Program-made: the position numbers and the translations under genes
Shown here: positions 35,640 to 43,825 of the stretch, piece after piece
Numbering within the stretch: the stretch's first letter is position 1
Layout: each line of letters starts with the position of its first letter
From: Candidatus Eiseniibacteriota bacterium
GTDB taxonomy: Bacteria > Eisenbacteria > RBG-16-71-46
DNA: 64,000 nucleotides
Reading direction: 5' to 3'
NCBI GenBank assembly: GCA_046327815.1
Contig: JAXLXR010000002.1
Coordinates: forward strand, 382,422 to 446,421
The notes under the pieces: generated by a model
Database searches by the model: none
What the model saw: only the letters and a program-made list of their open reading frames with translations
Told to the model about the DNA's origin: nothing

Positions 35640-36497
35640 TCAGTCGCCGAGTGCGGCGGGCTGGGCCGGGCCCAGCGGACCACGCTCCGTGCGGCCTTCG
35701 CGGGCCGACGGCGCACCGCTCTCGCGGCGCACGTGGTCGAGCACGTGCTGGTGCCGGTCGTCGCCGCCGAGCGCATCCTCGAGCCGGTCGAGCACGGCAC
35801 CGAGCGCGCGCAGCGCCTTCTCGGGGCCGACCGACGCGGTCGAGACCATGCGCTGCAGCCGGGCCACGAGCACCTGCAGGCCGCTGGTGTCGGGCGCGAG
35901 CGCGGAGCCGGCGGTACCGGCCGAACCGTCCGCGGTCGGGGACTCCGGGTCCTCGGCCGGGCGTGCCGGGCCGAGGAACACCGAACCCGGATCGCTCGCG
36001 TCCACGGGCACCGGGCGCGCTTCACCCGCGATCGCGGTGAGCGACGCGCTCGCCTCGAAGTCCGCGGCGAAGCCCGCGAGCGACGAGAACTCGCCGCGGC
36101 CGACGTCGGCCGCGCTCGCACCCTCGCTGCCGCGGAAGAACTGCCGCAGTTCGCGCCCGAACTGCTTGACGAGCTTCTCGATGTCGGCGCGTTCCTGCTC
36201 GTTCAGGTCGCCCTGCACGGTGATCTCGAAGCTCGCGCTCGATTCCAGCGACAGGTAGCTGGCCTGCGCGCCGCGCGAACGGATCGAGGCGAACGTGGCG
36301 TCCGCTTCGAGGTGGGCGGACAACGTCACGGTGTCGCCCTCGAGCGTCTTGATCGTGAGGTCGCCGCTCGCTTCGCGATGGGCGCTCGCGGCGACGAGGT
36401 TCGTGGCGGCATTCGTGCCTTTGCTGACCGAGCCGTCGGTGCGTTCGAGCGTGGGCTCGTACGGCATCAGGCTCGGCGATCCGATTCCGGAAACCAT
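35640..36497 (-). CDS. hypothetical protein (285 aa), last gene of the two-kinase operon
   Basis: RBS GGAGGA 6 nt before the ATG at 36495-36497. Coding-like GC3 bias. No domain recognised. Acidic, low-complexity C-terminal half. Confidence 0.5.
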   Translation of the reverse strand: MVSGIGSPSLMPYEPTLERTDGSVSKGTNAATNLVAASAHREASGDLTIKTLEGDTVTLSAHLEADATFASIRSRGAQASYLSLESSASFEITVQGDLNEQERADIEKLVKQFGRELRQFFRGSEGASAADVGRGEFSSLAGFAADFEASASLTAIAGEARPVPVDASDPGSVFLGPARPAEDPESPTADGSAGTAGSALAPDTSGLQVLVARLQRMVSTASVGPEKALRALGAVLDRLEDALGGDDRHQHVLDHVRRESGAPSAREGRTERGPLGPAQPAALGD

Positions 36498-36574
36498 GAG
36501 CGATCCTCCGTCCATGAAAGGGGAACCACGTCACGGAGTCTCGGGTCGTCCGGCGAATCCTTGAGAGCCGGACC

Positions 36575-39019
36575 TCAGGCGGCTTCGGCCTCGCGCGACG
36601 AATCACCGGCCCCCGTCCAGCGGGCGAGCGCCTCGCGGAGCCGGGCTTCGTCCACCGGCTTCGACACGAAGTCGTCCATGCCCGCCTCGAGGCAGCGGTC
36701 GCGGTCGCCGGCCATGGCGTTCGCGGTGAGCGCCACGATCGGCGTGCGGCGGCCGTCGGGCTTCTCGAGACGGCGGATCTCCCGCGTCGCCTCGAACCCG
36801 TCCATCTCGGGCATCTGGCAGTCCATGAACACGACGTCGTAGGGCAGCTGGCGCCACAGGTCCACCGCCTCGCGCCCGTTCGCGCCGACGTCCACCCGGC
36901 AGCCGAGCTTCGTGAGCATGCGCACCGCGACCTTCTGGTTGATCGCGTTGTCCTCGGCCACGAGCACGCGCCAGCGTGGAGCGGACGGCGCCTCCGGCCC
37001 CGAGGGCGCACCGGTCGCCATGGCGCGGTCTTCGGCGAGCAGGTGCTGGGTCACGAGCGGGGCGCGCACGCCCTTCTCGCGGATGCCGAGCACGGTGGCG
37101 ATCGCTTCCTGGAGCAGCGACATGCGCAGCGGCTTCACGAGGTAGGCGTCGAAGCCCACGGCGAGGAACCGCTTGGCTTCGCCGCGCCGGCCGCTGCTCG
37201 TGAACATGATCATCGCGAGCTTGTCGTAGGCGCCGTCCTCGCGCAGCAGCTGGCCGAGGTGCTCGCCGTCCATGCCGGGCATGAGGTGGTCGATCAGCGC
37301 GAGCCGGATCGGGTCGCCTTCCTCGCGCGCGTGCCGCAGCGCCACGAGCGCGGCTTCGGCGTGCTCGACCGCCTGCGCGCGGAGCCCGAACGAATGCAGC
37401 TGTTCGACCAGCACGCGGCGGTTGACTTCGGTGTCGTCCACGATGAGCGCGCGCACGCCGTCGAGCGGCGAGCGCGGCAGCTTCTCGTGTGCGCCGGAGC
37501 CGTCGAGCGGGAGCCGGAGCGTGGCGGTGAACGTGGAACCCTTGCCGGCTTCGCTGGTGACGGCGATGTCGCCGCCCATGAGTTCGGCGAGCTGGCGCGC
37601 GATCGCGAGCCCCAGCCCGGTGCCGCCGAACTTGCGCGTGGTGCTGGTGTCCGCCTGTTGGAAGCGGTGGAACAGCGAAGGCAGCTTGTCGGCGGGAATG
37701 CCGATGCCGGTGTCCTGCACCTGGATGCGGACGAGCGCCTCGCCGGCCGTCACCTCGGGCGCGTCCACGGCGATCAGGACGTGGCCCTGCTCGGTGAACT
37801 TGATGGCGTTGCCGGCGAGGTTGAGCAGGATCTGGCGGATGCGCCCGGGATCGCCGACCAGTCGCTGGGGCGCGCCGGGCGCGTAGTGCACGACGAGCTC
37901 GACGCCCTTCTCGCTGGCGCGGGTGGCGAGCAGGTCGGCGGCTTCCTCGATCGCGACGCGGAGGTCGAAGGGCAGGGGCTCGATGGTGAGCTTGCCGGCC
38001 TCGATCTTCGAGAAGTCGAGGATGTCGTTGATGATCGAGAGCAGCGCTTCGGCGGACGCCTTGCTGGTCTCGGCGTAGTCGCGCTGTTCGGGGCCGAGCG
38101 GGGTGTCGAGCAGCAGCCCGAGCATGCCGAGCACGCCGTTCATGGGCGTGCGGATCTCGTGGCTCATCGTCGCGAGGAAGTCGCTCTTCGCACGGTTCGC
38201 CGACTCCGCCGCCTCCTTGGCCGAAACCAGGCTCTGGTTGACCTCGCGCAGGTCGCGCGTGCGCGACTCGACTTCGGCTTCCAGGTGCTCGCGGTGCTCG
38301 CGCAGCTCGGCATTGCGCTGCTGGATCTTGTCGAGCATGGCGTTGAAGCCCTGCACGAGGTCGCCGACCTCGTCGTGCTGGTCGGCCTGTGCGCGCACGG
38401 CGTAGTCGTGCCGCTCGATCACCGTGCGCGTCACGCCGGCGAGGCGCGAGATCGGCTCGGAGATGAAGCGCTGGACCCGCGACGCGATGGCGAGCGACAC
38501 GAGCAGCGTGCCCGCGAACAGTCCGGCGAGCAGCAGCATGTAGCTGCGGGCGCGCTCGTGCAGGTCCACGAGATCGCGCTGCAGGAGAATGGTGCCGATC
38601 GTCTGGCCGTCGAGTTCGATGGGCTGGACGAGCACGATCGCCTGGTCACCCAGCACCACGCCCGAAGGCTGGGCGTGCGGAGGCAGTGCCACGCGCGCGC
38701 CGCGGCGCACGTAGCGCGCGAACGGCGCCCCCTGTGCGTCGTAGATGCACGCGGCGGTCACGCGCACGTTGGCGCCCAGCGCCGCGAGCGCCTCCTCGGC
38801 CGAGGCGACGTCGTGGAACGACAGCGCGGCCGTCGAATTGGAGCCGATCACGTCGGCGAGCACGTCGAGATCGTGGCCGATCCGGTCGCGGAACGTGTGC
38901 TGGTCGAGCGCCTGCACGATCGTGAACGTGAGCAGCAGCGCGACCAGCGTCGTACCGACCATGGCGGTGACGAGCTTGCGGGACAGCGAAAGATCGCGGA
39001 ACGCGTGGAGGGGGCTCAT
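36575..39019 (-). CDS. hybrid sensor histidine kinase HK1 (TM, periplasmic domain, TM, HAMP, HisKA, HATPase_c, REC, REC)
   Basis: Two TM helices flank a roughly 140-aa periplasmic domain. HAMP. H-box [14 protein letters not shown]. ATPase G-boxes. Two receiver domains ([14 protein letters not shown]... and [14 protein letters not shown]...[14 protein letters not shown]). Confidence 0.85.
37491..38217. repeat. 727-bp near-identical duplicated segment (copy A) spanning the HisKA-HATPase core of HK1
   Basis: Aligns base-for-base, with no indels, to 40606-41332 at a constant offset of 3115 nt. Roughly 7 mismatches, all third-position synonymous. Flanks are unrelated. Confidence 0.9.
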
Positions 39020-42700: not shown

Positions 42701-42839
42701 TCATGTGACCTTCGTACTGCAGGCGCATCGCGATCGCCACGTACACCGCGCTCGAGAGCGAAAGCACGAACGCGAACCCGATGACGGGCAGCAGCAGCTT
42801 CCTGCGCAGCGATCGCGGGGAATGCGCCAGGCGCTTCAT
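39741..42839 (-). CDS. hybrid sensor histidine kinase HK2 (TM, periplasmic domain, TM, HAMP, two PAS, HisKA, HATPase_c, degenerate REC, REC)
   Basis: Sensor N-terminus different from HK1, with two PAS domains. The HisKA-HATPase core is identical to HK1 over 242 aa. Terminal REC ([14 protein letters not shown]...[14 protein letters not shown]). Start ATG 42837-42839 verified. Confidence 0.85.
40606..41332. repeat. 727-bp near-identical duplicated segment (copy B) spanning the HisKA-HATPase core of HK2
   Basis: See copy A. The encoded 242 aa are identical in the two kinases. Confidence 0.9.
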
Positions 42840-43825
42840 GATCCGGAATCCGGAAGTGCCTGCGTGGTCACGAGCGCACCGCCGCGGACGGGCGGGGCGA
42901 GTGCCCCGATCTCCACCAGTACGTCCCACGTGCGCGCGAGCGCGCGCTCGAACGGACCGCCGGGCGCGAGATTCGGACGCTGTTCCGCGAGGCTGACCAG
43001 ACGCAGGCCGGCCATGCCGTCGGCGAACGCCTCGGGCGCCAGCTGCTCGCGGTCCGCCATCACGTCGCGCGCCTCGTCGGGATGCTCGCGCGCCCAGTCC
43101 TCCGCACGCAGCACGGCCCGGACGACGGCGCGGTAGCGCGTGGCGTCGTCGGCGAGTGCCGCGCTGTCGGCCACGAGCACGTCGGCGACGAGCCCCGGGG
43201 CCTGCGCCGAATCGAACAGGCGGTGCACACCGCGGTGTTCGAGCAGCTCGAGCGAGATGGGCGGGAAGCACTGCACGGCCTGCACGCCGCCACGCTCGAA
43301 CGCGTAGTCCTTCTCGTTCTGCGGCATCGGCGCCAGCTCGACGTCCGTCAGCCGCAGGCCGGCGCTCGCGAGCGCGGCCCAGATGTTGAGCACGTCCACC
43401 GATCCCGCTTCGAGCGCCACCCGCCGGCCGCGCAGGTCGGTGATCGCGTGCACGGTGCTGTCGCCGAGAAGCACGTCGCCGCCCGCGGACCAGTCGAGCA
43501 CGAAGAAGGCCTGGGGACGGCGCCGCGCCTGCGCGTGACTGAACACCAGTTCGACGTTCGACGCCGCGAACGCGTCCACGGAGCCGTTCTCGAACGCCGC
43601 GCGCGAGTCGCCCGGGGACTCGAGTTCGACCAGCCGCACTTCGACGCCCTCTTCCCGGAAGAAGCCCCGCTGCTGCGCGAGGTAGAGGAACTCGTATCCC
43701 GGCCACGGGCTCATCGCCACGCGCAGCGGAGTGGGCGGCGCGGGAGCGCAGCCGCCGAGGCACAGAGCCACGGTGGCGCAGCCGAGGAGAATCGAGGATC
43801 GGGGTCGCGAGATGGTCGAAGTCAT
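42836..43825 (-). CDS. periplasmic substrate-binding-like lipoprotein (NMT1/SsuA/TauA-type fold, tentative)
   Basis: Lipobox [14 protein letters not shown]. Type-2 SBP-like sequence ([24 protein letters not shown]). 4-bp overlap with the HK2 start suggests a sensor-accessory role rather than transport (no permease or ATPase nearby). Confidence 0.6.

Follow-up and report, generated by a model that had tools for sequence, protein, structure and literature searches.

Two putative periplasm-sensing kinase modules with near-identical catalytic cores in a Candidatus Eiseniibacteriota genome

Introduction

Do two hybrid histidine kinases that are encoded side by side, each behind a gene for a putative periplasmic protein, form one sensory unit? 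The question is raised by a gene cluster at positions 35640–43825 of a 64,000-nt stretch of Candidatus Eiseniibacteriota DNA (contig JAXLXR010000002.1, assembly GCA_046327815.1; the whole 64-kb stretch is hereafter called the window). The cluster encodes a lipoprotein resembling solute-binding proteins (renamed as SBP), a hybrid kinase (HK2), a YfiR-like protein, a second hybrid kinase (HK1), and a hypothetical protein (hyp5). The original prediction, made from the DNA alone, described a five-gene sensory operon in which two inputs converge on kinases with identical catalytic cores. The genes themselves were confirmed, and the proposed reading of them was borne out in part. Our analysis indicated that the cluster likely consists of two adjacent periplasm-sensing modules, SBP–HK2 and YfiR–HK1, both of known kinds, together with a functionally unlinked third gene. 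The two modules probably share a relay, and the units are probably co-regulated from separate starts.

Results

Gene organization of the cluster

The G+C content of the window was 71%, so raw lists of open reading frames (ORFs) were full of spurious frames. Genes were called with a third-position GC (GC3) frame plot, ORF analysis, and a coding-score gene call. Five collinear minus-strand genes were resolved (Table 1), and they were those described in the original prediction. The SBP and HK2 genes overlap by 4 bp (ATGA), and the YfiR-like and HK1 genes are separated by 2 bp, which confirmed the minimal spacing claimed for these two pairs. The spacing is not minimal between HK2 and the YfiR-like gene, where the spacer is 131–140 nt. 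NCBI annotation places the start of the YfiR-like gene at 39600, giving a protein of 192 aa. HK1 and hyp5 are 77 nt apart. As had been noted for the surroundings of SBP, a screen of the 46 proteins predicted in the window turned up no ABC-transporter genes.

The YfiR-like protein and HK1

The YfiR-like protein was assigned to its family by profile search. It matched DUF4154 (PF13689) with 122.9 bits (cut-off 24.9; E = 1.4e-35) over 142 of the 143 model positions, in agreement with the original prediction. It also passed NF053591 (TOL_0243 family YfiR-like periplasmic protein) with a score of 134.9 (curated equivalog cut-off 125). The same cut-off was passed by homologues from L013, L017, and L022 (homologous loci are referred to by L numbers). 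With near full-length coverage, the family profile matched 4ZHY and 4YN7, crystal structures of YfiR, at E ~ 2e-7. A signal peptide with a hydrophobic core and an AxA site, ending AFA/QA, was read directly from the sequence. An exact-sequence look-up of the protein returned no record.

Pfam analysis of HK1 gave the order transmembrane (TM) segment, CHASE8 (E = 8e-21), TM segment, HAMP, HisKA, HATPase, REC, and REC; no GGDEF domain was found. The N-terminal 234 residues scored 219.9–223.9 on NF053592 ("sensor histidine kinase, YfiR-like protein-associated"; cut-off 194). The N-terminal 240 aa also aligned to the DgcN/YfiN model NF007423 (E = 1.6e-25) at model positions 3–228 of 390. On this model HK1 reached 89.9 bits against a cut-off of 325, with the N-terminal sensor only. 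Because the HK1 sensor aligns to that of DgcN/YfiN, the YfiR/CHASE8 input pair is conserved, with only the output domain differing.

To survey the locus, one genome per species was scanned with an alignment of relatives of the YfiR-like protein. The scan gave 14 loci, 13 of them with downstream DNA. In all 13, the YfiR-like gene was directly followed by a gene for a CHASE8-HAMP hybrid kinase with two receivers. The survey included an Acidobacteria metagenome-assembled genome (MAG) at 33% identity, both proteins of which passed the NF053591 and NF053592 cut-offs. On this comparison, the YfiR-like/kinase pairing is a conserved module and not a matter of chance neighbours.

The original prediction had contrasted a YfiR homologue paired with a kinase with the repression of YfiN in Pseudomonas. 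A new departure from YfiN was not borne out: judged by the models, the pairing is already catalogued as NF053591/NF053592, and both cut-offs were passed. Gene order, tight coupling, and the architecture seen in all 13 loci also agreed with that pair, and no departure from the family definition was found. One difference from the catalogued pair is that the YfiR-like and HK1 genes here also lie downstream of a second, paralogous kinase gene. No experimental paper on the kinase-coupled YfiR-like family was found, and the DUF4154/CHASE8 papers in the searched full-text library describe no kinase-coupled YfiR. Curated annotation thus seems to be the only source for this family.

Among the closest known systems are YfiBNR (TpbB) of P. 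aeruginosa and DgcN-YfiR-YfiB of E. coli. These systems also have a periplasmic DUF4154 accessory protein, homologous to YfiR, and the TM-CHASE8-TM-HAMP sensor of HK1 is homologous to the N-terminus of YfiN. By analogy, the logic of a repressor acting on a sensor is probably the same. Unlike YfiBNR, the output is a hybrid histidine kinase without GGDEF, and no OmpA/YfiB-like lipoprotein was found among the proteins of the window. On NF053586, the equivalog model for YfiR, the YfiR-like protein reached 29.9 bits against a cut-off of 85.

SBP and HK2

SBP matched Pfam NMT1 (E = 1.3e-23) and NMT1_2 (E = 2.3e-11). It has an LGGC lipobox whose Cys26 was invariant among orthologues, in keeping with the SBP-like lipoprotein originally predicted. 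In NCBIfam it resembled the SsuA, TauA, and urea SBP models and fell under every cut-off (SsuA_fam, 91.4 against 163.5; taurine SBP model, 20.4 against 304). It further differs from the SBPs of SsuA/TauA ABC transporters in having no adjacent permease or ATPase genes. The nearest solved structures were SsuA-type and matched at E ~ 1e-7 only, so no ligand could be named.

HK2 was composed of a TM segment (~19–37), a periplasmic domain of ~145 aa, a second TM segment (~183–201), a HAMP-like region, PAS_7, PAS_4, HisKA, HATPase, a degenerate receiver, and REC (Pfam). The HAMP match was weak, and the degenerate middle receiver had no Pfam hit. The sensor was detectably similar only to the SBP-coupled kinases of L023 (E = 7e-9) and L024 (E = 5e-8). 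A homologue search with the N-terminal 265 aa was uninformative: 8000 word-sharing candidates yielded no hit at E <= 1e-3. A metagenome scan with an alignment of the HK2 sensor gave no confirmed relative.

The adjacency of SBP and a kinase was kept in three of three close relatives, and in L001 and L004 the SBP gene likewise overlaps the kinase gene. When metagenomes were scanned with the SBP alignment, 10 relatives with 25–35% identity turned up, on contigs of 29–69% G+C. Among eight loci of such distant relatives, the SBP gene was followed by a sensor kinase gene in five to six. The kinase gene directly followed the SBP gene, with anything from a 4-bp overlap to a 10-nt gap, in L023, L025, L027, L028, and L029 (contigs of 29–66% GC). 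The kinases of these five loci have TM segments at ~10–35 and ~181–200 with ~150 aa between them, and three of them have HAMP at ~200–250. L024 probably belongs to the same group of SBP-coupled kinases; L031 and L032 do not. The conserved gene order indicated that the SBP–kinase pairing is a conserved module and not a chance neighbourhood.

The pairing follows the recognised principle of SBP-dependent sensor kinases and is not new in kind. LuxP/LuxQ, TorT/TorS, HptA/HptS, XylFII/LytS, and AioX/AioS likewise have a transporter-less SBP gene directly 5' of the gene for a two-TM kinase with a periplasmic domain. Reviews report this layout for signalling SBPs (PMC8050422) and typically find the SBP genes of sensor kinases among signalling genes (PMC8050422; PMC10443332). 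NMT1-family SBPs are not among the characterised SBP–kinase pairs in one of these reviews ("NMT1" has 0 occurrences in PMC8050422). In contrast to systems of the LuxPQ and TorTS type, SBP is a lipoprotein of the NMT1/SsuA superfamily, and the sensor domain of its kinase is unclassified.

Gene conversion between the kinase cores

HK1 and HK2 both carry HisKA, HATPase_c, and a C-terminal receiver in one protein. Their cores share a 727-nt tract with 99.0% identity. The seven differences are all synonymous third-position changes, so the DHp/CA cores of the two proteins are identical, as the original prediction had claimed. The boundaries of the tract are sharp, and identity drops to 32–57% directly outside it. 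The corresponding cores of L001 were only 86.7% identical. A 99.0% identical, sharp-edged tract in the window against 86.7% in L001 points to recent gene conversion in the lineage of the window. The DHp (HisKA) segments of HK1 and HK2 were 96–100% identical in both lineages, and the terminal receivers of the two kinases were about 80% identical.

Evolution of the arrangement

The cluster has cyclophilin, PHO4, PhoU_div, and M32 peptidase genes as neighbours. The syntenic interval between the cyclophilin and M32 carboxypeptidase genes was compared across relatives, and three states were seen. State A, seen in outgroup Eisenbacteria, has YfiR–HK1 with or without hyp5 (L009, L010, L011, L012, and L014). 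State B has all five genes (the window and L001). State C has SBP, one kinase, and hyp5 (L004). By this distribution, the layout with five genes belongs to a single lineage, in which the SBP–HK2 pair was added to an older YfiR–HK1(–hyp5) arrangement. In a distance tree of the cores, the HK2 core of L001 fell inside the syntenic HK1 clade, after the state A genomes branch off. The tree position indicated that the HK2 transmitter is a lineage-specific duplicate of the HK1 transmitter.

The single kinase of L004 (L004 2086–5247; JGI 3300038404) was a chimera of an HK2 N-half and an HK1 C-half. Residues 1–516 were 80–93% identical to HK2 of L001. Residues 509–1053 were 95.6% identical to HK1 of L001 over 545 aa without gaps, and 33–88% identical to HK2 of L001 per 50-column block. 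P0007, the hyp5 orthologue beside the chimera, occurred on six contigs; these came from the JGI sample and from several SRR runs. The chimera, with the YfiR module deleted, is what recombination between paralogous cores would produce. It amounts to a natural domain-swap experiment.

These data make the locus a clean natural example of how a sensor kinase is rebuilt. A duplicated transmitter became joined to a new SBP-dependent sensor, the two copies were then homogenised by gene conversion, and in one relative recombination resolved the pair into a single chimera. Apart from this recent evolutionary reshuffling, the locus is mostly ordinary. Its points of modest interest are the gene-conversion and deletion dynamics and a sigma-28-like motif, described below, that links the sensors to chemotaxis and flagellar genes.

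The same history raises an alternative, namely that the two modules are functionally independent neighbours. SBP–HK2 would have been inserted beside the older YfiR–HK1, and the identical cores would be a passive by-product of gene conversion, with no designed integration. The genomes in state A, which have no SBP–HK2, are consistent with this. So are the L001 cores, in which the identity has not been maintained, and the separate promoter-like motifs and the spacer that divide the modules. However, the promoters of SBP–HK2 and YfiR–HK1 carry the same motif, and the DHp segment is nearly or fully identical between the two kinases in both lineages. The L004 chimera, which joins an HK2 sensor to HK1 receivers, also persists in several samples, suggesting interchangeable halves. 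We consider functionally independent neighbours a rather unlikely explanation.

Several Eisenbacteria MAGs contained a second YfiR-like/CHASE8-kinase pair elsewhere in the genome (loci L013 and L015–L020). The cores of these second pairs were ~51–58% identical to the syntenic core, and the pairs were without the CCGAGACT motif described below. In L017, another kinase gene lay directly upstream of the YfiR-like gene.

A shared promoter-like motif

The octamer CCGAGACT had four exact copies in the 64 kb, all on the minus strand, before the SBP, YfiR-like, hyp5, and PAS genes. A tolerant bipartite scan of the window gave six matches, against 0–2 in shuffled sequences. All six were correctly oriented, intergenic, and 43–115 nt upstream of a start codon (P ~ 1e-9). 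Three of the sites lie in the cluster (Table 1). The other three, with the motif as CTCAAG-N15/16-CCGA(G/C/T)AC(T/C), were at 28682–28710 (+), before a 101-aa Flg_bbr_C (flagellar rod-type) gene at 28779–29084; at 59553–59582 (+), before a stand-alone receiver gene at 59668–60066; and at 33875–33904 (-), before the PAS and MCP (methyl-accepting chemotaxis protein) gene pair. The stand-alone receiver was considered as a CheY and rejected, as its nearest solved relatives were the PhoP and PleD receivers.

Depending on the genome, the spacer 5' of the YfiR-like gene lies behind HK2 or behind the cyclophilin gene. In an alignment of this spacer across genomes, only CTCAAG-N15-CCGAGACT and the ribosome-binding site (RBS) and start were conserved. 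Overall, the motif was present at orthologous sites in L001, L004, L009, L010, L012, L014, L021, L034, and L035. A shared promoter or regulatory element at these sites is well supported. An Rfam scan of the whole window found no family, which means that no known RNA element accounts for the conserved intergenic motifs.

The consensus of sigma-28 promoters has a -35 element TCTAAAG and a -10 element GCCGATAA with a 15-nt gap (PMC12784957, PMC8325347). The window motif resembles sigma-28 (FliA/WhiG) promoters in its ..AAG and CCGA cores, spaced 15 nt apart; unlike them, its -10 half reads GAGACT and not GATAA. A tentative assignment to sigma-28 is a reasonable reading of this resemblance to the consensus. 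The six sites suggest a small regulon with a sigma-28-like promoter in the window. For Candidatus Eisenbacteria, known as a phylum from MAGs, the motif is a testable lead on promoter structure and on a regulon tied to motility.

Separate starts or one operon

The claim of a five-gene operon did not hold up as it stood. The genes are collinear on one strand; a common transcript is doubtful, given the motif before genes 1, 3, and 5 and the lineage-specific juxtaposition seen in relatives. From these motifs, three co-regulated transcription starts are most likely, rather than one plain operon.

In RNA folding, the 112-nt cyclophilin–SBP spacer reached -58.1 kcal/mol (z = -2.5) and contained a hairpin resembling a terminator. 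A long terminator-like hairpin was also present after hyp5 (Table 1). No strong hairpin was found in the HK2/YfiR-like spacer (z = -1.2).

A classical five-gene operon, read from a promoter upstream of SBP, would fit the common strand, the two tight junctions, and the strong hairpins that lie only before SBP and after hyp5, with none inside the cluster. The internal motifs would then be protein-binding sites or non-functional remnants. We regard this as rather unlikely. In L010, L012, L014, and L021, which lack SBP–HK2, the motif before the YfiR-like gene is the sole upstream element, and it has been conserved while the rest of the spacer has not. The motif also stands, with its geometry unchanged, before unrelated genes elsewhere in the window.

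Table 1. Coordinates of the genes, conversion tracts, motifs, and hairpins of the cluster
Feature	Position	Strand	Length	Remarks
SBP	42836–43825	-	329 aa	Orphan NMT1/SsuA-like lipoprotein; putative periplasmic co-sensor of HK2
HK2	39741–42839	-	1032 aa	Hybrid histidine kinase
YfiR-like	39022–39609	-	195 aa	DUF4154; TOL_0243 family; putative HK1 regulator
HK1	36575–39019	-	814 aa	CHASE8-HAMP hybrid histidine kinase
hyp5	35640–36497	-	285 aa	Acidic, predicted cytoplasmic; own promoter-like motif and RBS
Gene-conversion tract, HK1 copy	37491–38217	-		HisKA and HATPase core
Gene-conversion tract, HK2 copy	40606–41332	-		
Sigma-28-like motif before SBP	43868–43895	-		TTCAGG-N14-CCGAGACT; conserved in L001 (2529) and L004 (1019)
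Sigma-28-like motif before YfiR-like	39667–39695	-		CTCAAG-N15-CCGAGACT; conserved in L001, L010, L012, L014, and L021
Sigma-28-like motif before hyp5	36537–36565	-		CTCAAG-N15-CCGAGACT; conserved in L001, L004, L009, L034, and L035
GC-rich hairpin after the upstream cyclophilin gene	43927–43962	-		Terminator-like, no U tract; would insulate the SBP–HK2 unit
Long GC-rich hairpin after hyp5	35575–35633	-		Terminator-like; -70.8 kcal/mol, z = -3.3

The hypothetical protein hyp5

The last protein was acidic with its own RBS, as the original prediction had stated: its isoelectric point was 4.78, and GGAGGA was located 8 nt before the ATG. It has no cysteine and no signal peptide. It was 100% identical to the NCBI hypothetical protein U0704_03760 of a Candidatus Eisenbacteria MAG; the exact-sequence look-up gave no record. 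No Pfam or NCBIfam family matched hyp5, and Pfam hits at E <= 10 were noise only. Close homologues numbered only 17. A profile search gathered 1806 representative proteins with the conserved motifs EGDxVT(L/I)S and GDLxEQE, indicating that hyp5 belongs to a large uncharacterised family. Only two of 40 members weakly touched DUF5610, on which a literature search found no papers.

The AlphaFold 2 model of hyp5 was confident at residues 32–160, with three long strands, a helix, and a fourth strand. This predicted core of a β-sheet plus helix had no convincing neighbour in the PDB. Foldseek against the PDB gave no match at E <= 1e-3, and a sequence-profile search of the PDB gave only noise from low-complexity or designed proteins.

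The original prediction had counted hyp5 as part of the sensory unit, and this did not hold up. The gene was absent from the syntenic loci L012 and L014, and a distant homologue was found among unrelated genes with no adjacent kinase. Roles of hyp5 as an Hpt, FlgM-like, or YfiB-like partner were considered and rejected, given the absence of HxxKG, of any family match, and of a signal peptide, and its absence from L012 and L014. Judging from this distribution, hyp5 is probably a neighbouring co-regulated gene and not a sensor component.

Discussion

A proposed model of two modules with a common relay

The data above show the gene structure, domain and family membership, conserved pairing, conversion tract, deletion chimera, and motif; contacts between proteins, ligands, the sign of regulation, a common downstream partner, and the sigma factor are inferred in the model proposed here. 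SBP may bind a small ligand and dock on the ~145-residue periplasmic domain of HK2, by analogy with LuxP/LuxQ, TorT/TorS, and HptA/HptS. The docked SBP would shift the kinase/phosphatase balance of HK2 via the HAMP and PAS domains. By analogy with YfiR–YfiN, the secreted YfiR-like protein may bind the CHASE8 domain of HK1 and keep the kinase in a single signalling state until its release. The output of HK1 would be a phosphorelay transmitter, HisKA-HATPase-REC-REC, in place of GGDEF. The kinase pairing shows the YfiR/CHASE8 sensing pair to be a portable input module, able to drive either cyclic di-GMP synthesis or a phosphorelay.

HK1 and HK2 would feed one downstream Hpt protein or response regulator encoded elsewhere. 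Both kinases probably use the same partner because their paralogous transmitters have been recently homogenised by the 727-nt gene conversion. The convergence of two inputs, which the original prediction had proposed, is plausible, as suggested by the identical cores, the similar terminal receivers, and the viable natural chimera with an HK2 N-half and an HK1 C-half. The SBP–HK2, YfiR–HK1, and hyp5 units would be started separately and co-regulated, possibly together with motility genes. Co-regulated separate starts are probable because the same motif stands before each unit and also before chemoreceptor and flagellar-rod-like genes.

Several observations weigh against parts of this model. Neither a cognate response regulator nor an Hpt protein is encoded in the 64-kb window, and no Hpt domain was matched among its predicted proteins, which does not help the idea of a common pathway. 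On the SBP side, the N-terminal sensor of HK2 belongs to no Pfam or NCBIfam family, and a profile-profile comparison did not group its periplasmic domain with the sensors of the other SBP-coupled kinases (hhalign probability 3.9%); a single sensor-domain family common to all of them was rejected. On the YfiR side, no cysteine was invariant in 26 members of the YfiR-like family, and the Cys in TLCNVIYLG of YfiR aligned to a non-Cys column. Because the disulfide cysteines of YfiR are not conserved and YfiB is missing, the release mechanism must differ from that of YfiBNR. As for transcription, no FliA gene was seen in the window, which bears on the sigma-28 assignment. At 71% GC, a generic sigma-70 and terminator scan of 35.3–44.7 kb was uninformative (0 sites). 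Because no strong hairpin lies between HK2 and the YfiR-like gene, the five genes may also be co-transcribed by read-through.

A stronger version of the two-module model can be imagined, in which the cores are kept identical to allow heterodimers or a common relay. Solute and envelope signals would be integrated in one kinase complex, expressed from sigma-28-type promoters with chemotaxis and flagellar genes, and repeated gene conversion would preserve compatibility. If true, an uncultured phylum would have at this locus a checkpoint on the motile state with two inputs. We consider this version improbable.

It is also improbable that SBP is an orphan SsuA/TauA-like component of an ABC transporter encoded elsewhere, with HK2 beside it by accident. 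Its best family similarity is indeed to the SBPs of sulfonate, taurine, and nitrate ABC transporters. However, it fell short of every NCBIfam transporter-SBP cut-off, no permease or ATPase genes were found in the window, and the ATGA overlap and the adjacency kept in close and distant relatives argue against it. Finally, a collapsed or mis-joined repeat is highly improbable: the source is metagenome-assembled, and assemblers can mishandle a 727-nt, 99% repeat with copies 3.1 kb apart, but the copies differ at seven positions with both reading frames intact, and L001, assembled independently from another sample, carries the five genes in unchanged order, with cores that are 87% identical.

Other genes of the window

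A soluble PAS protein (33206–33763/33949, -) and a protein with only an MCP signalling domain (32259–33209, -) are encoded by genes overlapping by 4 bp. The pair resembles a chemoreceptor divided into a sensor half and a signalling half, a split also called in L001 and L004. At 46664–48661 (+), divergent from the PhoU_div gene, lies a gene for a type II/IV secretion ATPase (T2SSE) with an N-terminal MshEN domain and a C-terminal receiver. The receiver of this ATPase was also seen at the syntenic place in L009, L011, L012, and L021.

Three plus-strand genes encode a CARDB protein (1332–3857), a protein with seven TIG domains (20196–23186), and an alpha-amylase with Big_5 (23341–26451). All three have a FlgD_ig-like domain in their last ~60 residues, which resembles a common C-terminal tag for sorting or anchoring. 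A REC-GGDEF gene (56234–57154, +) is followed by a gene for an unusual kinase (57181–59526, +) with HisKA-HATPase, two GAF domains, and a C-terminal HD_5 (HD-GYP-like) domain. At 53457–54642 (+), a HipA_2-like kinase gene overlaps a DUF3037 gene, and the two may form a toxin-antitoxin-like pair.

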